DNA of 64,000 bases from Marsupella aquatica (GCA_973895155.1 OZ316898.1:21153292-21217291); one strand, 5' to 3'. Shown: positions 20,605-54,189, numbered from the stretch's first letter. Numbers and translations are program-made. Notes: generated from the sequence alone by a model not told the origin.

Positions 20605-20619
20605 GAGCTGAGAGTCAGG

Positions 20620-22326: not shown

Positions 22327-22373
22327 TACCTACGCTTTCGTTCTAACTTCATATCTCACGGCTTAAGAAATGC

Positions 22374-22391
22374 CCCCTCCATCTAGCGCCA
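22374..22391 (-). other. Primer binding site of element B, probably tRNA-Asn(GUU)
   Basis: TGGCGCTAGATGGAGGGG 4 nt after the LTR end; from memory the plant tRNA-Asn 3' end is CCCCUCCUUCUAGCGCCA (one mismatch). Confidence 0.75.
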
Positions 22392-22395
22392 AAAA

Positions 22396-25300: not shown

Positions 25301-27063
25301 TAGTAGTGTCCTGCATTGTTGCCGTTGCCGTTGTTGTTGCCGATGCCGATTTCTTTTCTTTCTCCAGTAGTTTCAGCAGACTCTGCATGCCTGGTTGCTG
25401 CATCGGCAAGTCTTCCTTCCTGGGCCTAAACACCTGCTCGATCGTAGGACTAACAGGTGGTTGAGGCTTCTCAGCCAACGGCCTCGGCGTTGGAGCTTCC
25501 TCGGGTGCCCTTACCTGCAGGGGAAGTACCGGGGCAAAAGTCTGACCTCTGGCATACCGGCACAATAGCGGCATGTGATAGCCCAGCCGCGACACGCTCC
25601 CCATGCCGATTACCTGCTGCTCCTCCTTTAAGATCTTCTTCAATTGGTTGAGGAGGTACCCGTTGTAGTCCCGGCTTGGGTCTGGCCTTTCTGCCAGATA
25701 GACCTGTGCCTTGCCGATCTCTGCCCTCGGCAAGTTACAATGCATGGTCACCCGCAAGAAGTCGATCATCTCTCCTATGTGCGGGTTGGTGCAGGTGTTC
25801 CGGAAGAAGCCATTCTTCGTTGATGGCCCGGGGAACGACCGGAACTCCTTGTCAGGCAAGGTCTTCCTGGTATCAACTTTGGTCTTATTGCCTATCGGCA
25901 AGCCAAACACTTCGGCAATTACCTTGGGAGTAAGATAGAAATCCTTCCCATATATCCTCGTGCAATTGGTCTCGGGTTCCCATGACCCCACGAATTCTAA
26001 TAGGTCTGACTCCGGTACCTCCGGCTTCAGCCATGGTAATCTTACAAAGGCCTCCAAGCCGGATCCGGCCATGAAGCCTTGGTATCTCTTGGTCTGCATG
26101 GCCGTAAAGCATGCATCCTCCTCTCGTGCAAAATGTAGTTGCACCTCCACCGGTAGGGTTGCCGCCCAGCCTTTCCAGGTGTCATCCCTGGTTGGAATGG
26201 CCTTGATGGGATCGACCTCCTCCTCTTCGGCTTCTCCCTGCCTCCTGCTCTGCTGCTCGGCTGGCTTCTTTGGTGCCGCCGACCTCATTCTTTTTGCCGG
26301 GGTGGCTTCATCGTTGACGGCTCCCTTCCTCTTCATCTCTGCTGCCGTGGAGGTTTCTCCTAGCACCGTTGCCTGGGTCCACCTTTCCGTGCTACCCTTT
26401 AATTCCCAGTGTATGTCGTTGCAGTTCTTGATGGCCTCTCGGATGCCGACGACGCTGTCTTTGCAAAACAAAAGATCGTCGAGTTGATTGGAAGTAGGCG
26501 TCCACAGGAACTCATCCTTGATGAGTTCGCCTCCTAAGAAAGCCGTCTTCTGCAGCTCCCACAATCAAGCGAGCTCCTGCCATTCTCGAGCTGCCCTTTC
26601 TGATTCCTTGTCCTCGTAAGTCTTGATGTACTCAGTTGCCCGTTCGAACAGGCATCCCCAGAAATGTGCCGCTTGATTCACGTTGCTCATACCCTCCTTA
26701 GGTCGATCGTCGGTATCTACTCTCTCCCCGAGTGCTTGCCTAAGCAGCTGACAGTAGTTGGCCTCCCGTAGTCGTCTGCCTAGTTCGTGCTCGCAAATGA
26801 GCCACCATCTCCTGCAAGCGCTCCTTACCCCTCCCCTCTGCCGGTCCTTCTTCCCGTTGATCCTTCCTAGCCGCCGACGCTTAACGCGCCCTAACTCTAA
26901 TCGGGTTTTCACCCTCAGCCTTACCTCCGGCCTCTGCCCGGGTTCCATGGTTGCCCCTAATTGTTTATATTTTCCTTGTTTTGTCCCTATACTAAGGTGT
27001 TCCTAGGGTGCCTTCCTGCTTTACCCACTTAACCGGCCGAGTGATTCCTGTCTAGGCATCACA
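22396..27063 (-). repeat. 5' LTR of element B (4668 bp)
   Basis: TGTGATGCC...CGCACCACA, followed by the PBS; colinear with the LTRs of element A. Confidence 0.93.
23316..26948 (-). pseudogene. ORF-X in the 5' LTR of element B (two premature TGA, at 26565 and 23466)
   Basis: ORFs of 127 aa and 1032 aa are in one frame, which continues to the family stop at 23316. Confidence 0.88.
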
Positions 27064-32700: not shown

Positions 32701-34431
32701 GTTGTTGCCGATGCCGATTTTTTTTCTTTCTCCAGTAGTTTCAGCAGACTCTGCATGCCTGGTTGCTGCATCGGCAAGTCTTCCTTCCTGGGCCTAAACA
32801 CCTGCTCGATCGTAGGACTAACAGGTGGTTGAGGCTTCTCAGCCAACGGCCTCGGCGTTGGAGCTTCCTCGGGTGCCCTTACCTGCAGGGGAAGTACCGG
32901 GGCAAAAGTCTGACCTCTGGCATACCGGCACAACAGCGGCATGTGATAGCCAAGCCGTGACACGCTTCCCATGCCGATTACCTGCTGCTCCTCCTTTAAG
33001 ATCTTCTTCAATTGGTTGAGGAGGTACCCGTTGTAGTCCCGGCTTGGGTCTGGCCTTTCTGCCAGATAGACCTGTGCTTTGCCGATCTCTGCCCTCGGCA
33101 AGTTACAATGCATGGTCACCCGCAAGAAGTCGATCATCTCTCCTATGTGCGGGTTGGTGCAGGTGTTCCGGAAGAAGCCATTCTTCGTTGATGGCCCGGG
33201 GAACGACCGGAACTCCTTGTCAGGCAAGGTCTTCCTGGTATCAACTTTGGTCTTATTGCCTATCGGCAAGCCAAACACTTCGGCAATTACCTTGGGAGTA
33301 AGATAGAAATCCTTCCCATATATCCTCGTGCAATTGGTCTCGGGTTCCCATGACCCCACGAATTCTAATAGGTCTGACTCCGGTACCTCCGGCTTCAGCC
33401 ATGGTAATCTTACAAAGGCCTCCAAGCCGGATCCGGCCATGAAGCCTTGGTACTTCTTGGTCTGCATGGCCGTAAAGCATGCATCCTCCTCCCGTGCAAA
33501 ATGTAGTTGCACCTCCACCGGTAGGGTTGCCGCCCAGCCCTTCCAGGTGTCATCCCTGGTTGGAATGGCCTTGATGGGATCGACCTCCTCCTCTTCGGCT
33601 TCTCCCTGCCCCTTGCTCTGCTGCTCGGCTGGCTTCTTTGGTGTCGCCGACCTCGTTCTTTTTGCCGGGGTGGCTTCATCGTTGACGGCCCCCTTCCTCT
33701 TCATCTCTGCTGCCGTGGAGGTTTCTCCTAGCACCGTTGCCTGGGTCCACCTTTCCGTGCTACCCTTTAATTCCCAGTGTATGTCGTTGCAGTTCTTGAT
33801 GGCCTCTCGGATGCCGACGACGCTGTCTTTGCAAAACAGAAGATCGTCGAGTTGATTGGAAGTAGGCGTCCACAGGAACTCGTCCTTGATGAGTTCGCCT
33901 CCTAAGAAAGCCGTCTTCTGCAGCTCCCACAATCAAGCGAGCTCCTGCCGTTCTCGAGCTGCCCTTTCTGACTCCTCGTCCTCGTAAGTCTTGATGTACT
34001 CAGTTGCCCGTTCGAACAGGCATCCCCAGAAATGTGCCGCTTGATTGACGTTGCTCATACCCTCCTTAGGTCGATCGTCGGTATCTACTCTCTCCCTGAG
34101 TGCTTGCCTAAGCAGCTGATAGTAGTTGGCCTCCCGTAGTCGTCTGCCTAGTTCGTGCTCGCAAATGAGCCACCATCTCCTGCAAGCGCTCCTTACCCCT
34201 CTCCTCTGCCGGTCCTTCTTCCCGTTGATCCTTCCTAGCCGCCGACGCTTAACGCGCCCTAACCCTAATCGGGTTTTCACCCTCAGCCTTACCTCCGGCC
34301 TCGGCCCGGGTTCCATGGTTGCCCCTAATTGTTTATATTTTCCTGGTATTGTCCCTATACTAAGGTGTTCCTAGGGTGCCTTCCTGCTTTACCCACTTAA
34401 CCGGTCGAGTGATTCCTGTCTAGGCATCACA
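29772..34431 (-). repeat. 3' LTR of element A (4660 bp)
   Basis: Directly follows the PPT; colinear with 40652-45313 at offset 10880/10882. Confidence 0.96.
30693..34316 (-). CDS. ORF-X, LTR-encoded ~1207-codon protein (one internal TGA at 33933 in this copy)
   Basis: In-frame ORFs of 127 aa and 1079 aa; the other LTR reads CGA at that codon; start context CAACCATGG; ~300-aa coiled coil. Confidence 0.88.
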
Positions 34432-37400
34432 TAGCTCCCCACTTAATTGTGAAGCGTCCTCGCGAACAACTTCATCTTCGTCCATATAGTATTTCTTGAG
34501 GCGGTCATAATGGATGCGAACTGGATATACCTCTCCCGTAATGTTGGCCAATTGCACGGAGCCATTGGGGAACATCATGGTTACTCTAAAGGGTCCTAAC
34601 CAGCGAGTGTAAAGCTTTCCTGGAAACCTATTATACCTACTGTCATAAAGTAGCACAAGATCACCGGTATGAATACTAACTACTTTTAACCTTTTATCAT
34701 ACTGCTGCTTCATGATATTCTGTCTATATTCTACTCTCTCGGCTGAAATCATTCTCGCTTCCTCTAAAGCTTCTAACCTATATTCTCGCTCCTTTAGGCT
34801 CTCCTCCGCTGAGGCTCTTTCCTCAATTGTAACTTGAAATGTCGGTATCTCAAGTTGCATGGGTACCAGGGCTTCTTGTCCAAAGGTTAAGAAGAAGGGT
34901 GTATGACCGGTAGTGGATTTATAGGCAAGATTGTAAGCAAAAACAGCAGCAAACAATTTATCATCCCAATCGAGTTTGTTCTGAGCTACTGTCTTGTTCA
35001 ATATCTTTCCTATGATTCCGTTTGCTCGTTCTGTCAACCCGTTTGCCTTTGGATGGTAGGGAGTAGTAGGCCTATGTTTAACTAAATACTGCTCATTTAA
35101 ACGACTAATTATATCATTCAAAAAATGGGTTCCTCTATCACTAACTAATTCTAGGGGTGCTCCATACCTGGTGAAGATCTGCTCATACATGAATCTAGCC
35201 GTAGTAATTGCATCATCCTTCATTGTTGGTCTGGCCTCTACCCATTTAGTTGCATAATCCGTAGCCAGGATTATGTACTTGTTCCGTCGAGGGTGGGTCA
35301 GTGGTTTCAGAGGTCCAATGTAATCAATACCCCACTTCTCGAATGGTGCCAGAGGTAGAATAGGGTGCAGTGGATGCCTGGTGGACGCCCTTGGTCCTCC
35401 CGCTCGTTGACAAGGATCGCATTGTTTGATAAACTGATAGACATCTTTGTGCAAGGTGGGCCACCAGTAACCGGCATTTAATATCTTCTTAGACGTGGTT
35501 ACTGGGGCAAAATGTCCTCCGGCCTCCTCTCCATGCATGGCCCGTAGGACTCGTTTTACCTCTCTCTTTTCCAAACACCTTTGAATCGTGCCGTTGATTC
35601 CATGCTTGTGCAGTATGCCTTTAATGCACTGATACTGTCTGACCTTCCGCACAAAGACTGCGGCTTGCTCTCGGCTTAATCCTGGCTGTAATCTGGAAGT
35701 GCTGAGAAATTGTAAAATCTCAGGGTACCATGTACCAGCTATCTCCACAACGAATAGCTCCTCGTCGGGGAATCGATCATCGATGCAATCCGTGGCAGGT
35801 TTACCTGTGATCCTTGAAAAGAAGTCGGCATTGGCATGTAACTTTCCCGGCTTGATCCTCAGCTCATAGTCAAACTCCTGTAATAGCAAAATCCATCTTG
35901 CTACTCTGCCTGTAAGGTCCGGCTTATTGACTAGGTACTTCAAACTTTCATGATCAGTATGAAAGATTACCTTGTACCCTAGTAAATAATGCCTAAACTT
36001 TTTACAAGAATAAATGACTCCTAATGCTTCTCTTTCCGTGGTAGAGTAGTTCCGTTCGGCATCGGCAAGCTGACGGCTTGCGAAGTATATGGGATGGTCC
36101 CTTCCTTTCTCATCCAACTGACTTAGTACTGAGCCAATACAGAAGCCCGAGACATCTACAAAAACATGAAAATCTTTGTTCCAGTCCGGTGCTATCATGA
36201 CTGGGGCCTCTACTAACATCTGCTTCAATTCTACCACCGCTGTGACTCGTTCGGGTGTGGGTTCGAAGTCTGCTCCTGCCTTGAGCATATTGGTTAATGG
36301 TAAAGCCAGCTTGGCAAAATCCTTGATGAACCGGCGATAGTAACCAATGCATCCCAAGAAGGATCTTACATCCTTTATGTTCTTAGGTTGCATGATATCT
36401 AGCCATACTGCTAGCTTACCTTTGTCAATCTCAATGCCCTTCCTTGATACCTTGTGACCTAGTAGCACCCCCTCGGTTACTGCAAAAAAACATTTATCTG
36501 GGTGTAACTTGAGACCCACCTCTCTACATCTCATGAAGGTTTTCCTGAGGTATTTAGCATGTTTCGATGCCTTCCCGAATACTGCAAAGTCATCAATGAA
36601 GATTTCCATGAACTTTCTCAAGTAATCATGAAAAATGTTCACCATTAATCGTTGGAACATAGCTGGTGCGTTGCAGAGTCCAAACGGCATACGATTGAAG
36701 ACATAGATCCCCCATTCCGTGATGAAGGCCGTCTTGATTTGGTCTTCCTGCCGAATCCTGATTTGGTTATAACCAGAGTATCCATCCATGAATGAATATA
36801 GTTCATGACTGGCTACCATGTCTAGTACCATATCAGTAAACGGTAAAGGAAAATGGTCTTTTAATGTTGCTTCATTCAGCTTCTTGTAATCCTGACAAAC
36901 CCGGATCTTGGGTTTACCATCGGGTCCAGCTTTCTTGGGAACTATCACAATTGGAGACACCCAGTCTGAATGCAGGACTGGAGTGATGAATCCAGCTTCC
37001 ACTAGTTTGTCGATTTCTGCTTTGACCAGCAGGGAATACTTCAGGTTCATCCTTCGAATTGGTTGTCGAAATGATTTGGCTCCTAACATGAGATCAATTT
37101 GATGTTCCCCTAGTGTTGGATCTACTCCCTTTAGATCTTGGTGACTCCATGCAAACACATCCTGAAATTCAATCAATAAGTCACTGATCTCTTTCTCGAG
37201 CTCAGGTGCTAGGTTTCTCCCTAAGTTCAGTTCTCTTCCCTCTCCTAAGTCGAGCTTCCGATATTGCCGTGCTTGGATCATATTAATCTGCTTCTTCAAA
37301 TTCGGGTCCAGTTCGGCTTCCAGTCTCTCTAATCTCATACCTCCATAAACTGGGATCTCGGCTGGACTAGCCGAGTCGGTCCCTTCCTTGGTGTCCATAG

Positions 37401-37662
37401 ATTGTCCCCTTACCGGTCTATTTGGTTTTGAATTAGTGGTCGGCTCCCCTTCCTGCCTTGGCTCTAGATCGTGTCTGTCCATCTCATCCACCTCTTGCTC
37501 CTGAGAGTTAGGCCGCTGTGCTCTCTCGGCTTCTAATAGGGCCTCAATTTGTTTTGCCCTCGTAATCGGCTTGTATGCCGATCCCTTGGTATTTAATTTC
37601 TTGCCGATGATCGATGGCGTTGTGGACCCCGTCGGCTCTGCCACAACGCCTGCAGAAAATCC
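34420..37662 (-). CDS. pol: RT-RNase H-integrase, intact frame, entered by a predicted -1 frameshift; no chromodomain or extra RNase H seen
   Basis: DHFPLPF, FMDGYSGYNQI, MPFGLCNAPA, FIDDF, FVDVS...NYSTTERE, H-x6-H...CDPCQ, WGIDYIGP, SDRGTHF, ANGLTER, WLGPF; stop codon lies inside the LTR. Confidence 0.95.
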   Translation of the reverse strand, partial: GFSAGVVAEPTGSTTPSIIGKKLNTKGSAYKPITRAKQIEALLEAERAQRPNSQEQEVDEMDRHDLEPRQEGEPTTNSKPNRPVRGQSMDTKEGTDSASPAEIPVYGGMRLERLEAELDPNLKKQINMIQARQYRKLDLGEGRELNLGRNLAPELEKEISDLLIEFQDVFAWSHQDLKGVDPTLGEHQIDLMLGAKSFRQPIRRMNLKYSLLVKAEIDKLVEAGFITPVLHSDWVSPIVIVPKKAGPDGKPKIRVCQDYKKLNEATLKDHFPLPFTDMVLDMVASHELYSFMDGYSGYNQIRIRQEDQIKTAFITEWGIYVFNRMPFGLCNAPAMFQRLMVNIFHDYLRKFMEIFIDDFAVFGKASKHAKYLRKTFMRCREVGLKLHPDKCFFAVTEGVLLGHKVSRKGIEIDKGKLAVWLDIMQPKNIKDVRSFLGCIGYYRRFIKDFAKLALPLTNMLKAGADFEPTPERVTAVVELKQMLVEAPVMIAPDWNKDFHVFVDVSGFCIGSVLSQLDEKGRDHPIYFASRQLADAERNYSTTEREALGVIYSCKKFRHYLLGYKVIFHTDHESLKYLVNKPDLTGRVARWILLLQEFDYELRIKPGKLHANADFFSRITGKPATDCIDDRFPDEELFVVEIAGTWYPEILQFLSTSRLQPGLSREQAAVFVRKVRQYQCIKGILHKHGINGTIQRCLEKREVKRVLRAMHGEEAGGHFAPVTTSKKILNAGYWWPTLHKDVYQFIKQCDPCQRAGGPRASTRHPLHPILPLAPFEKWGIDYIGPLKPLTHPRRNKYIILATDYATKWVEARPTMKDDAITTARFMYEQIFTRYGAPLELVSDRGTHFLNDIISRLNEQYLVKHRPTTPYHPKANGLTERANGIIGKILNKTVAQNKLDWDDKLFAAVFAYNLAYKSTTGHTPFFLTFGQEALVPMQLEIPTFQVTIEERASAEESLKEREYRLEALEEARMISAERVEYRQNIMKQQYDKRLKVVSIHTGDLVLLYDSRYNRFPGKLYTRWLGPFRVTMMFPNGSVQLANITGEVYPVRIHYDRLKKYYMDEDEVVREDASQLSGELCDA
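34432..34445 (-). other. Polypurine tract of element A
   Basis: TAAGTGGGGAGCTA abuts TGTGATG; the same sequence is at 63767-63780. Confidence 0.88.
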
Positions 37663-38852
37663 ACTGTCCCTGCTACTGCTCCCCACTTAGCCGTTTCATC
37701 CAATTGGTCTACATCCTTTACTTCCTCCGGAATTGCAGCTAAAAAGGTGGATTCTATTGTAAAGCAGTCCTCGACCTCTTCGTCTTCTTCTTCCAAGTCA
37801 CCTTCCATTGGTTCTTGCCATAATCTGCTGGGGGGTACCTCTGGTCCAAAGACGCCTTCTTCGGTTAGGTTAGTGAGGCATTCTAACCAACGTACTTCAT
37901 CGGCTGACTCCAGTCCACTATCGTACCCATCTACTTCCCTTATGCTTTTCCTACGGTCATCCTTAGTGTCCCAGGATACCGTGATAGAGGGGGTCCCGAA
38001 AGTGAACTGCTTTTTACCCCAATCTTCTATTACCTCGGCTAGGTACAGCCATGGCCTACCAATCAATAGCCGGAATGACGTAGGATTTACCGGCTTCATT
38101 ACTACATAGTTAATGCTAAAGAAGATACCTCCTATCTCTGTCTTGATGCCGGTTAACACTCCCGTCGGAATGACCTGATATCCATTGGCCATGTTCAACA
38201 CTCTTCCAGTCATCTCCGGTGTTAGACCCCACCCTTTTGCTGTTGAATCAATCATAATACATACCCCTGATCCTCCATCGATGGGTACCCGTAGTAATAA
38301 TTCTCCTTGAATCATTAATGGTAATGCTGGGGCTCCTTGATCTTCTTCTATCATTAGTACGTCGGATCTGGTTGCTACCTTGGGTAATCTCGGCTTGCCG
38401 AGAATAGCCTTCCTTAATTGCTTCCGGAAGTACGGGCTATTTTTCAATAGTTGACCTACTGTTGCCGAGACTCTAGATTCTAGTACATCTTTAGCCAGGT
38501 CATAGGGAACAATCGGCTTCTCTTCTGGTGGTGTTTCCGTCTTGGATTCGGCCAGTTTTGCCACGCTAGTCTCCACAGCTGTTGGGTCTTCCGAAGCAAA
38601 CAATGCTTTTGCTCGTTTTACATCCTTGGCAATGGCTTCGGTATTCTCCAGGGTTTCTAATTCTCTTAGTTGTTCCTTAACACTAGCCGTAACAGAGGGG
38701 TAGAACAACTTAGGATGATCTCGATTGAAGTCGCTATCTTGTGAAGGATTGGTTTCATTGGTGGGCTCATGGCTTACCTGTATTGCCGGAGCCCTCCCTT
38801 CTCCTTCTGTTGATGTTGACGAAGAGTCGATCCTTTCCTCTGTAACCTTCCC
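37593..38852 (-). CDS. Aspartic protease region, in frame with gag behind one TAA
   Basis: VPIDGGSGVCIM and LLIGRPWL; the frame is open from 38852. Confidence 0.85.
   Translation of the reverse strand, partial: GKVTEERIDSSSTSTEGEGRAPAIQVSHEPTNETNPSQDSDFNRDHPKLFYPSVTASVKEQLRELETLENTEAIAKDVKRAKALFASEDPTAVETSVAKLAESKTETPPEEKPIVPYDLAKDVLESRVSATVGQLLKNSPYFRKQLRKAILGKPRLPKVATRSDVLMIEEDQGAPALPLMIQGELLLRVPIDGGSGVCIMIDSTAKGWGLTPEMTGRVLNMANGYQVIPTGVLTGIKTEIGGIFFSINYVVMKPVNPTSFRLLIGRPWLYLAEVIEDWGKKQFTFGTPSITVSWDTKDDRRKSIREVDGYDSGLESADEVRWLECLTNLTEEGVFGPEVPPSRLWQEPMEGDLEEEDEEVEDCFTIESTFLAAIPEEVKDVDQLDETAKWGAVAGTVDFLQALWQSRRGPQRHRSSARN
37603..37662 (-). promoter_or_regulatory. Predicted -1 ribosomal frameshift signal (G GAU UUU plus pseudoknot)
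   Basis: GGATTTT, 5-nt spacer, stem GGCGTTGTGG/CCACAACGCC, loop GCCGA pairs with downstream TCGGC; conserved at 60549-60608. Confidence 0.8.
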
Positions 38853-40582
38853 TTAATTTTTGGCCAGCCCATCCCACCTTTCCTTCCTTCTGGTAGATCG
38901 AGTAGAGACCCGGTAGCAATCATGATCTAAATCCTCCTCTGAGAAGGTTGATAGGGCTTCGGCCTCATCATCAGATGGTACGAACTCTGCCTCGGCATCC
39001 TCTTGCCATCCTAGTTCGATGTGGTTGATTTGAACTCCTCCGGGGGTAGTACCTGGCGGTAAGATCTTGATCGGCAAAAGCTTATGATTTGCGGCCAGGC
39101 CTGCCAACCAAGTAGGACATTGCCCTAGCATATGACCTTCCTGTCGGCATCCCATACATAGCTGAGCTGGTTGTCCATCACCCTGTTTGCGTGCATTCGG
39201 GCATTCTCTAGCAAAATGGCCAGGTTGACCATAATTATAGCACGCCGCAAATCTTTGCACATTCGGCCTAGGAGGTACTGACGGGTTCTGAATAATCCGA
39301 GGATACATCTCTCCTGGATTGTTCCTTAACCCTGACCACAGAGATGCAGGTCTGTTGGATAGGTCTCGTGCTCCAGTCTCACTGATGCCGAAAACACTAT
39401 CAGCGGCATCTCCCAAAAAGTACTCTACTTCTCCCTGACATGGTCTGATCTCGGCCACATGCCGAACATGATTAGTATTAAGCTTAGGACACGCATCTTT
39501 ATGGTGTCCGGTTTTATAACATAAGGCACACCATACAGAGCTATCCTCCTGTACTACCTTCTTTGGTTTTACCTCTGCAATGATAGCCTTAAGTTGCTCG
39601 GTAAGGGCTACGATGTTATCTGGTGGCTTAGCCTCCATCTTGACTTTCGTCTTCCCTCTCCTTCTGCCCTTCCTTTTCCTAGTTTTTTCTTCTTCAGAAC
39701 TAGAAGATAACCCCTCTTGCTACTCCCACTATCCGAGCTTGACTTATCACTTCTAGACTTCTTGGAATGTTTCTTCTTCTTATCTTTTTTCTTATGGGGT
39801 GATCCCTCCTCTGATGAGGAACTCTCAGACTTAAGCTGTTTCTTCCGGCTTGTGATATCTGCATTAATGTATAATTGAATATCCTTAATTGCTTCGGCTA
39901 AAGTCTCCGGGTTCTCCTTCCTAATTGCAAAACTCATCTTCTGTGGCAAAGCATTCACCAACCATTGAAGTTGCATACCTTCAGATGCATTGGTCTTTGT
40001 ACGTCTTACCAGTTTCTGAAAGCGTTGCAAGAACTTCCTGAAGGATTTGTTCTCCTTGAACCGAAGTTGTCCCAACTTCAGCACTGCTAGTTCTGAAGTT
40101 CCAATGGGTCGAAACTCCTTAACAAAGAGTGTTTTGAAGATATCCCAGATGGCTTGATCTTCCACATCTAATGCTCTGTACCAAGGCCTAGCCTCACCCT
40201 TGAACAGGCCGGGAAGAATCTGCATCTTGATGGCCGATTCTCCATTTGCTGCAGCGGTTCCCTCGAAATCATCCAACCATTCGTCCGGATCCTCATCTCC
40301 TCTCCCATGAAATGCTTTGTAATGTATGCGCGACCGCTGGCTCAATCTGGTCCCTGGCCTCTCGTCTGGCCGTGCCTCTGGTTCCCCCATGTCGGTTGGA
40401 GACTCACTTCTCCTTACCGACTCTTCCTCTGGTATGTCTTCTTCGACGCCACTTCCAGTTTCGGAGCTACCAGCTCTTTCTGCCCCTCTCAGTCGCTGTG
40501 TATCATGCCACCCGGCGAGCTGCTGCAGTCGAGCTCTCTCCCGTTGAATCACTCTTTCTTCCCTCGGCGTAAGGTCAGTCAT
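38853..40582 (-). pseudogene. gag: Gag of element A, 1-nt frameshift near 39710
   Basis: ORFs of 324 aa and 261 aa together match the continuous gag of element B. Confidence 0.9.
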
Positions 40583-40629
40583 TACCTACGCTTCCGTTCT
40601 AACTTCATATCTCACGGCTTAAGAAATGC

Positions 40630-40647
40630 CCCCTCCATCTAGCGCCA
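40630..40647 (-). other. Primer binding site of element A, probably tRNA-Asn(GUU)
   Basis: LTR...CA TTTT TGGCGCTAGATGGAGGGG. Confidence 0.75.
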
Positions 40648-40651
40648 AAAA

Positions 40652-43600
40652 TGTGGTGCGTCCCATGGCTCCCTAAACCCAAGAAACCCCCCAGCTCAAG
40701 CCGATTCCTGCAGGTTTCGTGCTTGGCGAGGCCGTTTCCGCGGCTTAGCGGCATGGGACGCTGCTAACCTTCTACTACTACTATTAACATTTTACACACA
40801 TATACTGGACAGATCCTTCATCGGGTCATGAGATACGTAGCCGGCCTAATATAGGCCTTGCCTTGTCTTCCCCTGTCTTCCCCTCCGTCTTGTTAGGTAT
40901 GTTTGGATTCCGCCGCCGGAATGATCCCCAATAGGCTTGGTTAAGCCGCTAAGACCTCTCTCAGCTCGACACATCCAACTATCACTCCCCTGCTTACTTT
41001 CCTTCCTTCTGTTGATGTGGGCACTCTTCACACAAGTTAATGCGACACACAAATAGCAAAATGACTCATTCTGACTGAGTCATACCATGCACTTGCCATA
41101 CAAACAGTACATCTCATACACAAGTTCTGCGAACTAAGCCGTGAGGCCAACTCTATTCAGCTCTTAGGCATGAGGAAACATGAATATACACAAGGGTCAC
41201 TGTATGACTAACCGAGAGCTTCTCGTACTACTTGATCCCAGCCCGGCTGGTGCAAACTAAAAACTTGCTAAAGAAGAGGCCCTGAGCTCCCCGCTGCCCA
41301 GGTACTTATCCTGGTAGTGGATCCGCCATTCTTTGCATCGTAAGCCTAATCTACCTGACAGTAATCTACTTGCCCGAATCTACCTATGTACAGCAAGGCA
41401 GGAGCACAAGTGTTGCTCCTACCAGTGGAACCGCAATCCCACTAAGCTAAGTGTCAGGGCCGCTCCTGGTTCTGATCCTAATCCTAAACGTGGAGATCCG
41501 CGCCCGCCCTGCCCACTCACGCCTCCTCCCTCCACGTCCGCCCTCCCTAAAAGGAATGGCGCCCTTGCACCGTCACGACACCGGTGGTGGATCCTCAATG
41601 GACGCCCCCAACACTTCCTCCTCAGCCACTGCCGTTGGCCCGCCTACTGACAGATTACCTGCCCTTGACCGAGTCAACTCTCCATCGGCCTGACTGGGTC
41701 CACCTTCGGCTTCAGCCTCGACACCGGCCTCGGCAATACCCACGGCTTCGGCCTCAGCCACTCCCACGGCTTCGGCTTCAGCCACTCCCTCGGCTTCGGC
41801 CTCCCCTTCCCCTAGGGTAGTTGGATCCTTAGCCGTGACCCTGTCTGGGGTCGGTGCTGGGTCTACCTCCTTGATCACCACGGCCTGTGAAGTCGTATTA
41901 CTCCTTGACCCTGAAGGTTTCCGCTTCTTCTTCGTTGGTGGCTCGGCAGCTGGTCCCTTCCCCTTCCCACTTACTTCCGGCACTGGTGCAGTTGACGCGG
42001 CTTGTCCTTCGGCAATTACCACCCCTGGTAACTGGTTTGTCCCAACGGGAGATGGACCTGCTGTAGCTAAGCATTTAAATACTGCGGCTTGTTTCTTCAG
42101 CCGCTCTGTTTAGTTGTCGGCCCGCCGCTGTAGGTTCTCCATCTTCCTCGTGATTTCCTCCAACTCCTCTTGGGTTTCATCCAGGTCCTTACGTGCCCCC
42201 TCCAGCTCGTTTTTGGCCTCCTCCTGCTCCCTGTGGGCTTCCTCCAATTCCTTCTTCAAGGTAGCCCTCTCCTCCTGGGTTGCTCTTAGCTCCTTGTCGA
42301 GCTCTGCAATGATGACAGACTCCATCTGGTTCATCTTGGCGTAAGTCTGTTCGAGCATCTCGTCCTTCTCCCTTAGGTCGGCCTTGAAGCTGGCCGTCAG
42401 GGACGCAAGCTCCTGCTGCAGCGCCATAATCCCTTGATAGGATTTCCCTAACTCGACCTCCTTCTGCTCAAGGGCTCCGCGGATTTTCTCGAGCTCCCCT
42501 TTCAACGCCCATTCCTTTCTTTGGGTCTCCGCCATGGCCCGGCTGTTGGCTGTTATGTGGGCCTCCTCTGTATTCTTCAGCTCTTGCTTCCACTTCTCCC
42601 TCTCTTTGATCGTGTCGGCCAACTCTTCCTGCGTCTGAGTCAGTTTATCCTTGATATTCTGATTATCAGCCTGCGCGGCGTCCAACTGCCCCTGCATGAT
42701 GTTCAGCTCATGTCATTTAATCCGCAGTTCATCTTGGGCTTTCTTGGCCGCCCTTAGATCTTCAATCTCGGCTTCCATCCTCCTAAGCCGCCGAATGACC
42801 TCGTCCTTCTTGCTTCTCTCTAAAGCCACCGCTTCTTCTAATTGGTGCTTCTCCAATTGCTCCCTATGAAAAAAGGGTCCTACCTCCAACTCCTCTCCAA
42901 AGATGCCGAGCGCAAGTTCCCCACACATCTCACCATACTCCATGGCTCTATTCTTAGCGTAGGTGGAGTAAGTAGAAGTGATCGGCATCGCCCATCGTGG
43001 CCTCTGCTCCCACGCCGTCCTGCGGATCTCTTCAATCGTGGCTAGAGGTTTGCTTCCTTTTTCGGCTAGCCGCCTGATGTCCTCCGGCCAATCTCCTCCT
43101 GGTAAATCCTTTTCCTTAGCCAGGGCGGCCTCTTCCTCCTGCTTGATTCGCTCCTGAAATTCCTGCACCGTCTGTTTTATGCCGTCGAAGCTCGGGGGAG
43201 CAACATCTGGTGGGGGAGACTCAGGGCTACTCTGCTGGTTGGGGTCCCCTCGCACTACCCTTGGAAGTGTGGGGACAAACCGGCCACAGGTCCTTACTCC
43301 TGGAACGTGATGGTCCGACCCATAGCCGGAATTATCAGGGCTGCAGTCCTCCACTGCCTCCTCTACCTCTTGGACGTCCGGCTTCTCCCTCTCCTCTTCC
43401 TCGGTAGGAGCTTCAGGCAATTCTGCCTCAGATTCGGAGGTTGAGGTTCCCACGTACATTCGAACACCTGGCTTGGATTCCGGCCTGATTCTCTTCTTGT
43501 CTCTAGCAAAGGGGTTTTCTCTTGTGAGCCGGTGTAGGCCTACCTCTGTAGTAGTGTCCTGCATTGTTGCCGTTGCCGTTGTTGTTGCCGATGCCGATTT

Positions 43601-45313
43601 CTTTTTTCTTTCTCCAGTAGTTTCAGCAGACTCTGCATGCCTGGTTGCTGCATCGGCAAGTCTTCCTTCCTGGGCCTAAACACCTGCTCGATCGTAGGAC
43701 TAACAGGTGGTTGAGGCTTCTCAGCCAACGGCCTCGGCGTTGGAGCTTCCTCGGGTGCCCTTACCTGCAGGGGAAGTACCGGGGCAAAAGTCTGACCTCT
43801 GGCATACCGGCACAACAGCGGCATGTGATAGCCAAGCCGCGACACGCTTCCCATGCCGATTACCTGCTGCTCCTCCTTTAAGATCTTCTTCAATTGGTTG
43901 AGGAGGTACCCGTTGTAGTCCCGGCTTGGGTCTGGCCTTTCTGCCAGATAGACCTGTGCTTTGCCGATCTCTGCCCTTGGCAAGTTACAATGCATGGTCA
44001 CCCGCAAGAAGTCGATCATCTCTCCTATGTGCGGGTTGGTGCAGGTGTTCCGAAAGAAGCCATTCTTCGTTGATGGCCCGGGGAACGACCGGAACTCCTT
44101 GTCAGGCAAGGTCTTCCTGGTATCAACTTTGGTCTTATTGCCTATCGGCAAGCCAAACACTTCGGCAATTACCTTGGGAGTAAGATAGAAATCCTTCCCA
44201 TATATCCTCGTGCAATTGGTCTCGGGTTCCCATGACCCCACGAATTCTAATAGGTCTGACTCCGGTACCTCCGGCTTCAGCCATGGTAATCTTACAAAGG
44301 CCTCCAAGCCGGATCCGGCCATGAAGCCTTGGTACTTCTTGGTCTGCATGGCCGTAAAGCATGCATCCTCCTCCCGTGCAAAATGTAGTTGCACCTCCAC
44401 CGGTAGGGTTGCCGCCCAGCCCTTCCAGGTGTCATCCCTGGTTGGAATGGCCTTGATGGGATCGACCTCCTCCTCTTCGGCTTCTCCCTGCCCCTTGCTC
44501 TGCTGCTCGGCTGGCTTCTTTGGTGCCGCCGACCTCGTTCTTTTTGCCGGGGTGGCTTCATCGTTGACGGCCCCCTTCCTCTTCATCTCTGCTGCCGTGG
44601 AGGTTTCTCCTAGCACCGTTGCCCGGGTCCACCTTTCCGTGCTACCCTTTAATTCCCAGTGTATGTCGTTGCAGTTCTTGATGGCCTCTCGGATGCCGAC
44701 GACGCTGTCTTTGCAAAACAGAAGATCGTCGAGTTGATTGGAAGTAGGCGTCCACAGGAACTCGTCCTTGATGAGTTCGCCTCCTAAGAAAGCCGTCTTC
44801 TGCAGCTCCCACAATCGAGCGAGCTCCTGCCGTTCTCGAGCTGCCCTTTCTGACTCCTCGTCCTCGTAAGTCTTGATGTACTCAGTTGCCCGTTCGACCA
44901 GGCATCCCCAGAAATGTGCCGCTTGATTGACGTTGCTCATACCCTCCTTAGGTCGATCGTCGGTATCTACTCTCTCCCCGAGTGCTTGCCTAAGCAGCTG
45001 ACAGTAGTTGGCCTCCCGTAGTCGTCTGCCTAGTTCGTGCTCGCAAATGAGCCACCATCTCCTGCAAGCGCTCCTTACCCCTCTCCTCTGCCGGTCCTTC
45101 TTCCCGTTGATCCTTCCTAGCCGCCGACGCTTAACGTGCCCTAACCCTAATCGGGTTTTCACCCTCAGCCTTACCTCCGGCCTCGGCCCGGGTTCCATGG
45201 TTGCCCCTAATTGTTTATATTTTCCTGGTTTTGTCCCTATACTAAGGTGTTCCTAGGGTGCCTTCCTGCTTTACCCACTTAACCGGTCGAGTGATTCCTG
45301 TCTAGGCATCACA
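40652..45313 (-). repeat. 5' LTR of element A (4662 bp)
   Basis: About 25 substitutions (counted by eye) and one 2-nt indel versus the 3' LTR. Confidence 0.96.
41573..45198 (-). pseudogene. ORF-X in the 5' LTR of element A (+2 frameshift near 43600; stops at 42713 and 42110)
   Basis: ORFs of 552, 283, 195 and 149 aa tile the protein. Confidence 0.9.
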
Positions 45314-45808: not shown

Positions 45809-48800
45809 GCAACAGCTGGCGATTGGCAAGTATGAGGTTGAGGATGACTACCTGCACAGAGTCACAGAACGGGAATTGCTACCTGGAATGATGTTTAGGA
45901 TAGTTGGATATGCATGAAATTGATTGATACTTTGAATTTAGTGTGCTGATTCTCCCTGGTTGGTTGTGGGTGCTGTGCAGAAGCTATGGGGGAAGAGGGT
46001 GATGACATGGAGACAGACATGGGGCTTGGAGAGTGGGGTGAAGAGGAAAGATTGGATATGGATGGAGACCCAGATGCAGGGGGCTCACAGAAAAATGCAC
46101 TTGTGCAGGATGCACAGGGCCCTCATCAAGTCCCAGGTAGGTGGGCAGCTAGAGAGAAATCACATAATCCATACCCTAGAAGGAGCCAGAGTTATTGGCA
46201 AGGGACGCCTGATAATTATGATGATGACTATGATGGAGCAGAAGATGGATGGGATGAATATGAACACCCAGAGCGTGGTAGAGATGGGTACAGAGGGCAA
46301 TGGAAAGGTGAGGAGGATGATTGGACAAGTAAGTGCCTTGTGCTAGTGATTTTGTGATGGTAGTAGAGATTTAGCTCAATATGGACTTATCTGATGTGTA
46401 GCTAGGGCAAAGAGTTTATCTTACAGGTCCATGAGTGTGGCATGTACCTGTTGGTATGCAGACTCTGATTGGGACAATCACAAAAACAACAAATGCCATC
46501 CACGTTCAGATAGGAGGCAATCATTCACAGGCGGGAGAAACGGCCCTAATTCATCAAGACAAAGCAATAGGACAGGTGGTCCAGAACCATCTATGCGCCA
46601 AGGGAGAGGTAACTTGGTCATTGCAGAATTGCTCTGAAGTCCAGTGTATATTTGGCAGCAGGATTTATGATTCATACTTACCTAATGGATCCTGTAAATG
46701 TGCAGGGACTCCAGGGAGGTTTGGACAATGCAATCCAGGCCGTGGGGGAGATCAGGCCGTGGAGGGACCCCAGGCCGTGGGGGGACACCAGGCCGTGGAG
46801 GGACACCTAGTAGCGCTTCAGGGAGTACCAAGGCAGGAGACAGTAACAAATTTGGTAAAGTAGAAGTGAATTCTGATGGTTGGATAACTCCCACATGTGA
46901 TGGTAAGAACCGTTGGCATTCTGACCTAAGAGGAGAAGTATTGCGTTGGTTAGATTTGAGCATTACAGAGTTAGGAGTCAGAACAAAGCTGATTGGGCTG
47001 CTATCTGGAAGGACATTCTTGAACGGTGGGACTATGTTGGTAATGATGGTAAGGGCCCAGTTGAAGATTGCATATCAGATTATGCAATGAGGATTTTGAA
47101 ACAAGAGAGGCATAGGTTGAAAAGGATGTGGATAGACAATGGTTCTAACAGGAGAATGTCACCACCCCCATCATTGGAATTGGATCAATGGACACGGTTA
47201 ATCAAAGGGTTCATGTCGGAGGCTGGGCAGAGCAAGAGTGAACTGATGTCAAATGCTCAAGGCAAAGTGAAACACCTGTCACAGGCTGGGAGAGGAAGTT
47301 ATGCTCCAGTGAAAGAACAATTGGTAAGGCAGTGACATGCCTGATAGTAAGCCTCAAACTTATCATCTTGCTACCATTATTACATTTTCATTGACAATCA
47401 ACACTTGGTTTCATTCATATGTATGTTGATGTGGACTGCAGAAGAAATTGACAGGTGAAGAACCATCAGCACAAGAAGTGAGAGAGGAGTTCATGAAACA
47501 AAGGAGTGAGGTGACAAGTGTGACTTCCAAACAGGTGATTATGTTGTAATTCTGTATGTTCTGTGACTATTTGGCCTTGAGCATCAGAAAGAATTGTAGT
47601 AGGAAGTAAGCAACCAGTTCTTGGGGACAATTATCTGAGATATGTAAGTTGTGTTATGACAGGGAACTGTTACAACTCTCACAGAGATGTGTGAATGGTT
47701 GAAGTCATTAGAGTATGGACTCCCTCGAGTGGAAAGTAAATTGGCTGATCGTTTGGATATTGTGGAGGCATCTGTAGCGAACCTTCTTGCATCAATGGAA
47801 TCTAATTTCAAGCTTGTGATTGAAAAATTGGGTGATTCTCAACCAAACAATGAGGGCAACATTGTACAAAGTGTGCCCTTGTTAACAAAAAAGGGAATTG
47901 GCAAATCTGACACAGGTATGGAAATGACACTGGCCCATTGTTCATTGTGTCCTATGTTCAAATGTTAGAAGTAAGTTTTCATGAATTGAGTGAATGGTTT
48001 GAATGCAGGAAGAGTGGAGGCAGAGAAGGACCCTGTAATCAGTAAGCAGAATGGCAAAAAGGTTGCTGAGACAGGTAACCTGCTATGATCCAGTACATTA
48101 CATTTGAAAAGTGCATGGAGTTTTGTGAAGCTTAAGCCGGTTGGAGGTAATCTTTTTTGTAAGAACTGGTTGGATCAACTGGGATCTGAAGTGACATCAT
48201 GATTGATATATCAGGTGATTCAAAGAGCAATGAAAAAGATGTGCCCAGTGCCTCAGTGACCATAGCCAAGGAGGTATCAGGTAAGCTGATGCTTTAAATT
48301 CCTCTCCTACCATTGTTGAGAAACAATTCAGTGGTTAATAGATTGAACCTGAATATTGTGGTGTGTTTATTGATCAGCAGAAGCAGACATGGAGGATATG
48401 GCAATGGCAAAGAAGGGGAAGAAGGCTGTTCATAATGGTAAGGAGATAGTAACAACTTTGTGGTTAGTGACATGTACATGGCGCACATGTGATGAGTGAA
48501 TCACTTATGTTGGACAATGCACTGAATTGTAGTTGATGCAGAGTTGACAGACTCTCAACCAAGTGGGAGCAGGGTGAAGCGACGTCAAAACTTGGGAGCA
48601 ACATTGGATGCAAGTAAGATTGTAGATGCTTCAATTGAAGCAAGTACAATGTTGGCAGATACAGAGATGATGTCGCAGGGAAATCCTGCTACACAATCGG
48701 AAGTGTCAAATATGGATGCAGATTCTTTGAAGAAGAGTGTAGCCAATTCTCGATCACCAGCACAAAACACTCGTGCCAAAGTCATGACTTGCAACCAAGG

Positions 48801-48886
48801 TATGAATAATGTCATGTATAAGCCACCCAGGAAAGCCAAGAAAAACAGCCAGGGTAAGGTGGAGGTGATAGCCACAGCAGAGCCAG

Positions 48887-51800
48887 TGTAATAGCTATCT
48901 AAATTAGAAACTTAGAAATAATGAAAAACTTTTAAAAATTTTGTAGTTAGAAATAGATTAAACATAGCCAATTAATCTACTTTTAGATATAAGTAAGGTT
49001 AAGACTTAAGTTAGTCGGATTAATGGATAATACCCTGAGTAATTAGGTAGGGGTGAGACGAGCCAGAAGAAACTACTATCGATGTTCTCGAAGCACGGAA
49101 GGAAGATTGGTGCTGCCGCGTTTGACTATGAGTTACACAAAGCGTATCGGCGTAAAGGCGCAACGGTGCTTTGGAGCAAAAGCGCAACGGCGTATCGGCG
49201 GAAAAGCATAACAGCGCAACGGAGCAAAGGCGCAACAGCGGATCACTTGGCATTGCTCTCTTCGGATCGATAGTTAGCGACAATGCCTTGTTTCTTGTTG
49301 CTATGGCAGACGAAGGAGGAGAGATGACTGCGAGAGGAGTTCCTCTACCTAAGGCCGTCCCTGTGACATACCCTACGATGAAAAGAAGCTTGCACGTTTT
49401 GAAGGAAGCACTGGCGGTCATGCACCTGAGTAAATTACTCACTCTGCCTTGGTCTGCAACTTCATTGAGTTTTCTGAAGGATTGCAGTGATGGGGCACGA
49501 ATCGAAGTCGGTATGGTGGGAAATGCTCGGGCGAATCCAGAATTCTGGACTCTGCAATTTGTTGCTGATGCTTTCAACTGTCCCGTCGAAGGCGACAGCT
49601 TACACTCACGACAAGGAGAGACTGCGAGGCCTTATTTTTCTGGAACTCGAAACGTCCGCCATGGATGGAAAATGGACCAGTGCACCGATTATACTCTCAA
49701 AATCATTTTAGAATTTTTGATTCCAATTCTCCATCCCATCCGGCCACATATGATACCTGTGTCACTTGCCAATACTATTGTGGCAAGTTGGAAGGGAGTT
49801 GCTCAGATAAATTGGGCCTTGTTGCTAAGACAGGTTATTTTATCTCAAGTAAAGAAGGTGAAAATGGACGAGTTCACTACTCTCCCTTCTTATCTTTGCC
49901 AGTTGTACTTTCATGGGAATTGCTTACTTCCAGGCGAACAAGAGGAGCGGATCAGACTGCTTGATGAATTTGATCTTAGTGAATCAGGAGACGAGGATAC
50001 TGAAGGAGAAGATGCTGATGAAGTCCAACCGGAGGTTCCACCACCTATCTGTTCAGAGGTTACCCCTCTTACCCATAGAGAACCACTTGTGGAACCCAGA
50101 AGAACCTCTTCACCAATTCCTGATAACCCACTATCCCCTTTCGAAGATCTCAATCGGGATAGAAGACTTTACACCCCCCTCAATTCCAATCTTGATGAGT
50201 ATACATCCGAGCCAGAACCAGTAGAAACGTCTCCACCTTCTGTACCTGTAGTTGACATATCTATCCCTAATACTCTTCGATCACCCACAGTTCCAACTCA
50301 GAATTTATCTATAGACAGCTTGACCCCTTCAATGAGATCCCGTAAGAGACCCTTCATGTTCAGCAAACCAACGGCTGATGAACTGAGAGTAGAATCTAAT
50401 CAGCAAATTATTGATAAGTTAAGCAACTTATTGATCTGTGAACCTGAGGAGATAGTTGACTCTGTTGAGAGGTTAAGAGCAGCCTCTGTAACTCTGCCTG
50501 AACCTAGTAGTCCCGACTCTCTATACTCTCCAACCCAAGGTCCGACTCAGTTCTATCCCGAAGTGATGGAGCTATTTCGACCCACCTCCAATATTAGGGT
50601 TACAAATATTGCTGAAGCTGAACCAATGGAGGAAAATGATGCATCACCCAGGTTAGAGCTCCAACAGACACTATCTGCTTCCCCAGGTCACTCTGCTGAA
50701 CACTATCCTACTCTTATTAATAAAATGACTGACATGCTGGAGTGTGATGAGAGACACTTAATTGATGTCTTGGATGATCTTTTGCATAAGACATCAGCTT
50801 TACTTACCCGAGATCATCATCGAGAATATTGTGAGGATTTAGTCCACAGGCTTACACAGATTTTCGGATGCAACCCGAAGCAAGTCTATTCTGCCGTCCG
50901 TTATCATACCTCAGCCTCTGGCTCTCCCATTTACTATTCTTCCCCTTCTTCCAGTCATTCACCCACCTCTCCTTACAGTCCTTCGAATCAACCAGACCAA
51001 CTCTATCCTAGTTTTCCAGAACCTGAGATCACCCCTACAGGTGAACATCTTGCCACTTCTTATCCTGACACCCTTCCACCAGGTCAAGATAAATCCTGTC
51101 AGGTTAATTTCATCCCTACACTGCATATTGACCCTAAGACCCCTCAGGAGAATATTACACAATTTGCTGAGTTTGTCAGAGTTTCAGACCTTAGAACTCC
51201 TCCCATTTTAGAGTTTTGGCAATACTATCATAAGAAGAGAGTTGAATGTCTCTATATCCTGAAGCTTCATTTGAAGGATGTCACCCGCCTAGAGATAGCA
51301 GAGATGGATGAGATCTGGACAGAGGCTAAATATTTTCGCCCTATTCTTGTTGTCCTAATCCTAGTTGGACACATTGTATTGGAGAATGGAGATCTGGCCT
51401 TGGCATACTTCGGGAACTTACCTGCCTATGTCTTGGAATTCATCATCAACTTTTTGAGACAAACCAACAAACGATATCAGGTCAACCATGGTGTCCTACC
51501 AGAGAAACCCTTTATTGTTCAACAATTTTCTCACCAGTTGCTGAGAGTGAGAGAATCTGGAACAACATTACTTCCCAGCGATTGGCTGATTACACCTTGA
51601 AGTGGCGGGAACTGTTACCTCGTGTCACCCCACTGCTATCACTTGCCAAGGACTCTGACACCTTCATCAACAAGTTTCCACGCAACTACCATACTACTTG
51701 TTGTAGTTATGATTTGGTTGGCATCTATATGCAAGCTAGCAAGGTGAACACTATGTTTCACAGAAGACTACTCCCCATTCTAAATGTTGAACGACAAGTC

Positions 51801-53397
51801 AGATCTCTTCCATTTGCTCGACATGATACACAGGCTATGGATTTCCTTCGAGAGGCGATTCAAACCGAGACATTCAGGAGTTTTCAACAACCGGACCAGA
51901 CAGCACTACTCCAACAAGATTAGTTCTCCTACGACAATAGTTAAGATCAGTCAATCTCTGCAATTTTAGTTAAATAGCTCAAGTAGTTAGAAAAGTCTCA
52001 TACTTTTTCAGGAGATAGCCCTTATGTAGTAGAATCTCCCCTGAAAGTATCGACTTAAACCGACATGTAGTTTAGAATATATGACATTTTTAGTTTTGTA
52101 AAAAGCGTGAGTGCGCAAAGGCGCAACGGCGCTACTATGTAAAAGCGCAAAGGCGCAACGGCGCCTCCAACACTTAGAAAAATTTCCGGAAAATGTATTT
52201 TGTTTATCCGACAGCACTTTTCACCGATTTTATTAAGGCACTTAGACACCTCAGAAAAGTCTAAAATTTTGCCAGCATGTAGCATGTATATAAATCTTCC
52301 ACCTAGTAAAGTTTCACCCCATTTTGACTTTTAAGTTAGAAATTAAAATTCCGATAAACTCACTATTTATCACAAAAGTGCAAAAAACACTTTTACTCCA
52401 GTTTACACTAGGGATAACTTTTGGTTAGTTTTTCATTCCAACAACATTCTAGTGAACCTTGAGTACTCTTATAGCATATTTTCATACTTTTTACTTTAGT
52501 TTATGACCCTTAAGATGTGAAAGGGCATGTCCTTTCATTATCTCTTTTCCCCTTTAGTTCCTGCCACCCTATATGTACTTGAATTTCTGCCACTTTTAGT
52601 GTGAAGAAATTTCATGAGCGCTCAGTTGCAAGATTACAACTTTGTTACCTCCATTTGTAGCAAGCACTCCATTGCATATGAGTACTTAATACAAAGGAAT
52701 TCTTCCCCCTTCAAGTCTAAATGAATGAGAAGTTTGGATCCTTGAAGTAAAATTATTGTGATTGTTAAATCTTTTGAGTATGTAAAAATAGATTCCTTGC
52801 TGGTGATGTTCTACATATTCCTTAGTTCTTGATGCATAGTTTTTGACGTGACATTGCTTGTGCACGGGATGCAAAGATTGTTACTTATCAATTACTTATG
52901 GCTTCAAATTTGATTATGATGGTGTCTCTTATTTGTGACACAAAGTACCGATTGGATACAGAAGTGATTGATTACTAGTCTCCACTTAGTACCTTGGAAG
53001 GAAAAGTTGAGACATGTTGACGGCATTTTAGTAATCATCCTAGTACCGTAATCCTTTCCAGAAATGTTCTTGCGGATATACCACTTAAATCATATCAAAT
53101 GAAGTTATGTTGAGGAGTCACCTTGGTTGTTTCCTAACTCCCTCACCATACCTCAAGGTTTTCATTGTGTTTTATTAATTGTTTCCATTTGTTAATTTTA
53201 TTTACAATATCAAGCAGACATTTAAAACTATGCCTTGCTGAGCAACCATAGTAAAAGGCTCAACTTTGTGTTTTTGTTACCTTATTCATTCATAAGTGCT
53301 AAATCATAGAAAATCATTCCTTACATGTTCTTCCATGGGAACGAATATCGAGTTTTGGATCTTAAATGTTTATTTATGTCCCTAGTGTGATAGTACA
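48887..53397 (+). mobile_element. Solo LTR of a second family (4511 bp) containing a long ORF
   Basis: TGTA...TACA, 5-bp TSD GCCAG (48882-48886 and 53398-53402), no long TIR, no gag or pol. Confidence 0.88.
49303..51923 (+). CDS. ORF-X-like protein of family 2 (765 aa open from ATG 49303 to 51600; probable frameshifted tail to 51923)
   Basis: HLSKLLTLPW...WTLQFVADAFNCPVEG...FSGTRNVRHGWKMDQCTDYTLKIILEFL...INWALLL resembles the ORF-X domain; followed by an acidic and Pro/Ser-rich region. Confidence 0.8.
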
Positions 53398-54189
53398 GCC
53401 AGTCCATAATCTTCTATCATGGGAGGATGACTTGCAGGTATGTGTGGGTACAGGCATTTTGCGACCGGATCATGCTAAATTCCATGGCAAAGTGGTCCCG
53501 GATGACCATGTAGTAGTGTTGTTGACTACAGTGATTGTATCTGATTGTAATTTGCCATTTCCAAATAGAGACGATGATCCACCTCAGGAAATAATTGCAG
53601 ATGCAGTAGGATCTCTTGTGCTTTGGCCATCAGAGTGTGTTAGTCTGCAGTGACTGAATACAAGTGTAGATAGAATCATGTGAATTGTGTTACATTTTGA
53701 CATTGCCTTGGAAAGATCCAAGAAATATCTGTACCAATTTTTCCATTTGGTAAAGAGGATGAAGGAGCCGTTGTGTGTGACATTGATATTTCTGAATTCT
53801 GTATGTATGAAACAAGTGATTGATGTCAAACTATGGCTCTATGGTGATTGTCTATGATACTTGAATCTGTTTTGTATCATTTTAGTATTAGTGTGTATGG
53901 TATAGACAAATGCTTTGTGACCTTCTTTGTAGTCTATGATGTTTGAATCTGTGAATTCATATTAGTGTACATGGTATAGAAGATGGCTTTCTGAAAATTT
54001 GTGTGAGGTTCTAATGTTAACATGGTGAATGGTGACCTTATAGAGTGAGTTCATTCCAAGTACACAATAAAACATGAATGGAATGTGTTATTTGTGCACA
54101 AGAGTGAGTTCATTCCAAGTAGTATAGTGGGGTCTTCATCACTCATTTCCACTTGACATGAAAGACTTGTACATACCCCACAAAGTGTC

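Follow-up and report, generated by a model that had tools for sequence, protein, structure and literature searches.

A 4511-bp insert with a large gene of its own interrupts an exon of another transposable element in the 64,000-nt stretch of the Marsupella aquatica genome analyzed here (the window). It raises the question of whether the insert is a solo LTR that contains a gene and, if so, what such a gene would do. The reading we favor, with a probability of roughly 0.55, is that the insert is the solo LTR of an Athila-type Ty3 retrotransposon with a gene inside, and that the product is a predicted VANC/PMD-like factor, which would bind motifs in the LTRs of its own family and counter host silencing. 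The insert and its immediate surroundings are as follows.

48887..53397, + strand: TG..CA insert, likely a solo LTR, judged by its ends, the empty site and its multi-copy 5′ end
48882..48886, + strand: left target-site duplication (TSD), GCCAG
53398..53402, + strand: right TSD, GCCAG
48526..53650, + strand: interrupted exon of a high-copy CACTA-type host element

The insert starts with TGTAATAG and ends with GATAGTACA (TGTA..TACA). The preliminary description had recognized a TGTA...TACA insert with the TSD GCCAG whose removal restores the exon in frame, and the ends, the duplication and the single open frame obtained by reading both flanks as an empty site all agree with this. In three of four public runs the empty site is present, with contigs that skip exactly the insert and one TSD (48880 to 53397, 4516 nt). 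TG..CA ends, a TSD of the 4–6-bp class together with an empty site elsewhere, and the lack of both internal gag-pol and a second terminal repeat are properties of a solo LTR. Neither a terminal direct repeat nor a long inverted repeat was detected at the insert ends, and an Rfam search gave no match.

No integrase, RT or gag was found in the insert itself. This would also suit a TG..CA element with a 5-bp TSD that was not derived from an LTR, such as a non-autonomous Ginger-like DNA transposon, and relatives of the insert's gene are found in DNA transposons. Long terminal inverted repeats would be expected in that case, however, and no inverted repeat extends beyond TGTA/TACA, a pairing whose score was equaled by 289 of 500 shuffles. 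The layout of the insert also parallels the proven LTR of a neighboring retrotransposon (family 1) and the LTR of a metagenomic Ty3 relative (L002), both described below. We consider a Ginger-like origin very improbable.

The interrupted sequence had been called a CACTA exon. The host does have pieces of DUF4218 and DUF4216 and a ..CTACTAGTG end at 54520, on which its identity as a CACTA element rests, but the exon itself has no Pfam match. The intervals 28447–29887, 45326–48886 and 53403–54520 belong to one CACTA-type element, apparently host to both a full family-1 element and the insert, and this is then followed by older family-1 LTR pieces (54521–54982).

Contigs of two runs (X1 and X3) were aligned to the first 80 bases of the insert. 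Those that start exactly at 48887 had a depth of 379 in X1, compared with 37 for the single flanking contig, and of 247 plus 75 in X3, compared with 16. Flanks differ between contigs sharing this 5′ end, which is therefore a terminus common to dispersed copies, as in solo LTRs. Contig depth is not a copy count, but the values suggest about ten or more near-identical copies with the same exact 5′ end. Long sibling contigs differ from the insert copy by ∼1% (e.g., 4 of 452 and 6 of 495 letters), which indicates that the insert family is young. Three flanks were visible. Two, in contigs that matched at least 31 letters, were at the insert's end, and the third belonged to a diverged variant. Each was unique, and no PPT, PBS or gag-pol was seen in them, in a comparison that probably missed contigs overlapping the end by only 30 letters. 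In X1 and X3 no contig connects the insert's 5′ end with the host sequence before it, a gap that proves nothing. The name solo LTR, given in the preliminary description, agrees with how the insert ends, with its TSD and missing terminal repeats, and with its multi-copy 5′ end. A PBS, PPT or gag-pol was not seen as the neighbor of any copy, so that we infer rather than observe this identity. We regard it as probable.

Three coding features were delimited inside the insert.

49303..51923, + strand: accessory gene of ∼870 codons; in this copy 765 codons are open (up to 51600) and the frameshift lies at ∼51.53 kb
49333..49992, + strand: N-domain, conserved and intact in this copy; VANC21 is the closest match to its predicted fold; remotely homologous to the family-1 ORF-X
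51106..51920, + strand: conserved C-domain, helical and divided between two frames; no fold match; shared with a CACTA-borne relative

A stop-free frame runs from 49156 to 51600 (814 codons); counted from the ATG at 49303, it holds the 765 codons that had been claimed as a minimum. In 300 base shuffles no frame exceeded 214 codons. A C-domain profile matches with positions 1–139 in the first frame and 139–262 in the second (E = 7.7e-31), and homologues extend into the frame ending at 51923. Because the homologues run on and contigs of all four runs have an indel relative to this copy near 51.53 kb, this copy is frameshifted in the C-domain and the full gene is longer, at ∼870 codons. Among 1.84 billion representatives, phmmer identified 263 relatives at E ≤ 0.001, with a conserved N-domain (approximately residues 13–245) and C-domain. 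A profile search found eight proteins without informative names, and a look-up of the ten top relatives gave no protein names. Neither the whole ORF nor the N-domain had a match in word-based protein searches, and no relative was found in viral and prokaryote collections. Only nine of the 20 ORF differences listed are synonymous, so that evidence for selection on the insert's family is weak.

That a gene can reside in an LTR is evident from a second element in the window.

29772..45313, − strand: family 1, a full Ty3 element with 4.66-kb LTRs, each holding ORF-X

The family-1 LTRs (4662 and 4660 bp) have 25 mismatches (99.4% identity), and the element has a TSD of TTCTC, a PBS, a PPT, gag and RT-RH-INT. 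The gene-in-LTR layout therefore exists in this genome, which counts in favor of reading the insert as a solo LTR. Compared with a diverged copy, the LTR gene has a dN/dS of 0.24 (984 codons) and of 0.10 in the N-domain; on this codon comparison, the ORF is under purifying selection. Family 1 is like the insert in the size of its LTR, in having the gene near the 5′ end and in its homologous N-domain. It is unlike the insert in being a proven full-length element, in showing no DNA similarity, in having a coiled coil instead of the insert's C-domain and in its distant place in the tree of N-domains.

The preliminary description had considered the two families unrelated, without visible DNA similarity, while calling the insert's protein ORF-X-like. 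At the DNA level this was borne out, since blastn (word size 7) and tblastn gave only chance-level matches of 20–25 nt; the best blastp match had E = 0.43. At the protein level the families are not unrelated. When 790 window frames were ranked by a profile of 84 insert-related N-domains, all five family-1 LTR ORFs (E = 1.5e-5 to 6e-3) came directly below the insert, and by this profile the insert protein is a remote homologue of ORF-X, in keeping with the term ORF-X-like. The proposal that gene-in-LTR architecture occurs in at least two lineages holds for family 1, with its full element, and extends to the insert, for which no copy was seen beside gag-pol, insofar as this is a solo LTR.

Other traces of family 1 and its gene were noted. 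No TSD-flanked solo copy was found within the window. A second family-1-type internal region (60216–64000, + strand) is 89% identical and ends in a PPT and an LTR start; this start is just 73% like that of the young LTR, the U3 start thus diverging faster than pol. A family-1 LTR with PBS and gag (27063..19577, − strand) is fused at ∼20620 to an inner piece (positions 256–1283) of another LTR and, from its structure, is an internal deletion derivative. In family 1, pol reaches into the 3′ LTR, whose initial 12 bases contain its stop codon (34420–34431, − strand). A degenerate third ORF-X-like gene (∼9000..7447, − strand) has stops, frameshifts and a coiled-coil-like tail; its N-domain profile match is weak (E = 0.079), and the six TG..CA/TSD candidates for its ends are at chance level.

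A metagenome scan with a six-row alignment yielded 37 loci with relatives of the insert's gene, and in all 37 the relative lies outside LTRs (one internal to a Ty3 element, 36 in one family). That none lies in an LTR counts against taking the insert's gene-in-LTR layout for granted. The Ty3 locus, L002, is a circularly collapsed contig with pol in RT-RH-INT order. Its gene, 38–40% identical to that of the insert in the N-domain, is internal and follows pol in this order.

L002 901–3714: pol
L002 3762: PPT-like tract
L002 4222–6450: gene
L002 6565: PPT, followed by a ∼990-bp TG..CA LTR, a tRNA-Asp-type PBS and gag

PPT-like tracts lie on either side of this accessory gene (L002:3718–3775 and 6520–6575). 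The upstream tract is preceded by a short stem-loop and followed by GG instead of TG, so it would not yield an integrase-ready end. The tract and pre-PPT element that immediately precede the family-1 LTR are matched in L002 by the second tract and its own pre-PPT element (0 of 300 shuffles), and the matching pre-PPT element is upstream of the gene in family 1 and downstream of it in L002.

In the family of 36 loci, a CACTA 5′ end lies ∼830 bp before the gene in 22. These CACTA-ended elements (L004–L037; e.g., L013:9175–13300 and L015:734–4043) show ∼15 distinct flanks among the 22 loci with an end. They carry both gene domains (the C-domain in L015 as well), ∼830 bp inside the end and opposite a DUF4216 piece. 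No 3′ CACTA end was found for this family; it owes the label CACTA to its 5′ end, to subterminal TCGCAAA repeats and to the DUF4216 piece, which is just under the cut-off. A mobile accessory factor would be expected to turn up, as this gene family does, in a CACTA-ended transposon. In a tree of 87 N-domains built by a quick method, the insert, L002 and the CACTA gene share a group of 14 rows (SH-aLRT 94, short of the starred level), and family 1 is on a long branch of unsure place. Because the insert groups with L002 and the CACTA gene and not with family 1, two separate moves are favored over a shared ancestral layout; this suggests that the gene entered the LTR in the insert lineage separately from family 1.

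The non-coding parts of the insert contain clustered repeats of a short motif.

49157..49238, + strand: motif cluster A, four GCGCAACRG copies just 5′ of the start codon
51924..53397, + strand: non-coding 3′ part, T-rich from ∼52.2 kb
52113..52161, + strand: motif cluster B, GCGCAAAG/GCGCAACG units at an 8-bp period
52287..52295, + strand: TATAAA-type box TATATAAAT, the only one in the insert; putative LTR promoter

Six of the window's seven exact GCGCAACRG sites lie in the insert, on one strand and in two clusters flanking the gene. These are clustered same-orientation motifs in non-coding element DNA, as in the VANC system, for a motif picked after viewing the sequence. The strength of an 8-mer common to the insert's two non-coding parts was reached by 0 of 500 shuffles and, when windows were slid along the sequence, by 7 of 519. 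If one mismatch is tolerated, the window as a whole holds 15 motif sites where 14 are expected, which is no enrichment. GCGC-core clusters are present in L002 at the two corresponding positions, ahead of the gene and in U3, and AGCGCT-type clusters there are found in addition in the 5′ leader, in the variable region of the gene and before RT. The best alignment of the insert's 3′ part with the L002 LTR pairs cluster with cluster, at a score that 16 of 200 shuffles reached and that is not significant alone. Family 1 has no comparable motif cluster.

Cluster A is placed where an LTR cluster and a pre-gene cluster would both fall, as would be the case if the 4.5-kb unit had never been an LTR. It could instead be a non-autonomous deletion derivative of an L002-like element, amplified in trans, in which a fusion, perhaps via the motif clusters, brought the LTR start together with the internal gene and what remained of the 3′ LTR. 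The gene of the closest relative with context, L002, is indeed internal, contig depth over the 3′ 1.3 kb of the insert is several-fold that over the ORF part, and none of the three flanks seen is a PPT. Such a derivative should, however, have the first ∼250 bp and the PPT again behind the gene. No PPT-like tract was found there, and a vestigial LTR start is not supported (71 of 500 shuffles match equally). There is also no known route by which a unit without two LTRs, PBS and PPT would attain some ten copies with the same end. We judge a deletion derivative to be unlikely.

The N-domain offers a lead to function. Its model (pLDDT 94.6) was compared with 48,161 chains, and the best structural match was VANC21 in complex with DNA (9lnk_A; Z = 7.3, rmsd 4.0, 9% identity), aligned over 197 of the 220 N-domain residues; the runner-up had Z = 4.4 over 59 residues, 2.9 below VANC21. 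Since 7.3 is less than the caution level of 8, below which a match can be a common arrangement, we treat the modeled likeness to the VANC21 fold as moderate. Foldseek searches of the PDB and BFVD found nothing for the N-domain, and a sequence profile search of the PDB did not recover VANC21. Atlas leads for the protein were Transposase_32 (0.87) and ATHILA (0.86) clusters, and one of the 84 profile members has a weak Transposase_32 match (E = 0.005); these are independent pointers in the same direction as the VANC21 fold. None of the 84 members matches PMD or DUF1985, and the insert scores above no Pfam curated cut-off for PMD, Transposase_32, ATHILA or DUF1985. For the C-domain, a model of the natural relative P0099 (pLDDT 73) gave no Foldseek match, a best Z of 3.6 by VIA and an uninformative Atlas result.

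The VANC21 structure was reportedly described by Tanaka in 2026. According to the accessible portions of the sources, VANC is structurally homologous to MAIN/PMD (PMC13547354; bioRxiv 2024.09.27.615353), PMDs are carried by Gypsy and MULE elements (PMC5418596), and VANC21 binds short motifs that are dense and in one orientation in the non-coding parts of its own element (PMC5735166). The predicted fold of the insert's N-domain moderately resembles VANC21 (PDB 9lnk; PMC5735166) and the MAIN/MAIL1 PMD over nearly the whole domain. As in VANC, insofar as its accessible description goes, a conserved domain is combined with a variable region, and short same-orientation motif clusters lie in non-coding element DNA. 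Unlike VANC, the hosts here are retrotransposons and CACTA elements rather than MULEs, identity is 9%, the C-domain is a different one, and binding and demethylation by the insert's protein are predictions. VANC proper is encoded by VANDAL MULEs, which a TG..CA element with a 5-bp TSD is not, and it is described as dicot-specific in the accessible text of PMC13547354. To an anti-silencing role of the encoded protein, predicted from this model, we give slightly less than even odds.

The motifs could have another explanation. On the opposite strand their core reads as the Athila PBS core, and GCAACGGCGCC at ∼52155 reverse-complements tggcgccgttgcc, the PBS core given for FIDEL (PMC2844528). The clusters might then serve RNA pairing in the PBS region, or be tandem duplications, and the protein of a solo LTR might be otherwise accessory (a chaperone of RNA or particles, a factor for nuclear import or an integration aid). 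The moderate VANC21 match and the lack of a known fold match for the C-domain count in favor of this, and the accessible portions of the literature examined contain no retrotransposon PMD/ATHILA protein shown to be anti-silencing. On the other hand, the L002 motif AGCGCTA is not complementary to L002's own PBS, and the gene family has a further host in a CACTA-ended DNA transposon, a kind of element that does not pass through RNA. An accessory role of this kind is conceivable, if rather doubtful.

For the favored reading, a gene-bearing solo LTR, we envisage three steps. At the start, the gene would have had the position it has in relatives, downstream of pol and ahead of the 3′ LTR, flanked by two PPT-like tracts. 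Two PPTs are reportedly also present around the Athila extra ORF (Wright and Voytas in 2002). Plus-strand priming would have shifted to the upstream tract and the downstream one would have been lost, with the result that the gene was copied into both U3s. The simplest reading is that priming switched from the downstream to the upstream tract independently in the two families, and we see an even chance that a PPT shift is how the gene came to lie in the LTR. In a second step, inter-LTR recombination would have left one LTR, gene included, between the TSDs. Finally, the N-domain is predicted to bind the GCGCAAC-type clusters that flank the gene and lie upstream of the TATA box, and the bound clusters would keep the promoters of the family open, an effect that solo copies may exert in trans.

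Retroviruses have genes in U3, namely sag of MMTV, nef of HIV and bel of foamy viruses. There too, coding sequence in the LTR is present at both ends of the element and remains in solo LTRs, but the proteins are unrelated, and the present gene has ∼870 codons and belongs to a plant Ty3 lineage. Extra ORFs are common in plant Ty3 elements and, in the accessible text of the reports, are described in the internal region (PMC7264820; PMC6317226). In non-chromoviral Ty3 elements, the same texts list Athila ORF-1 (PF03078), the Ogre PMD (PF10536) and Retand Transposase_28 (PF04195) (PMC6317226; PMC7264820), and LTRs of 4–5 kb are known (PMC1142308, accessible text). Literal phrase matching in open-access papers turned up no account of a plant LTR that contains an ORF. 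The present elements resemble the non-chromoviral group in their large sense-orientation accessory ORF, in the Transposase_32/ATHILA leads and in LTR length, which reaches ∼5 kb in that group, and the L002 gene sits exactly at the classical post-pol position. They are unlike the known cases in that the TG..CA unit contains the gene, as is proven in family 1 and inferred in the insert, and that no Pfam cut-off is reached.

Solo-LTR formation is viewed as the host's deletion of retrotransposon coding capacity. A gene inside the LTR escapes this deletion, and its dose is doubled in every full element. L002, with an internal gene and two PPT-like tracts, and family 1, with the gene in the LTR, would represent both states of a simple switch. 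LTR finders that filter on length or on the absence of an ORF are likely to misannotate gene-in-LTR elements. The function of plant Ty3 extra ORFs is an open question, as stated in the accessible text of PMC7264820, and here the VANC21 fold lead and the candidate target motifs in the same DNA make it directly testable. More speculatively, plant Ty3 elements may at least twice have moved a VANC-like anti-silencing gene into the LTR via a PPT switch, with a domain that travels among Ty3, CACTA and MULE elements and with solo LTRs as cassettes of gene and motifs that keep full-length relatives unsilenced. If the predicted role is true, leftover solo LTRs would keep helping their own family to escape host silencing.
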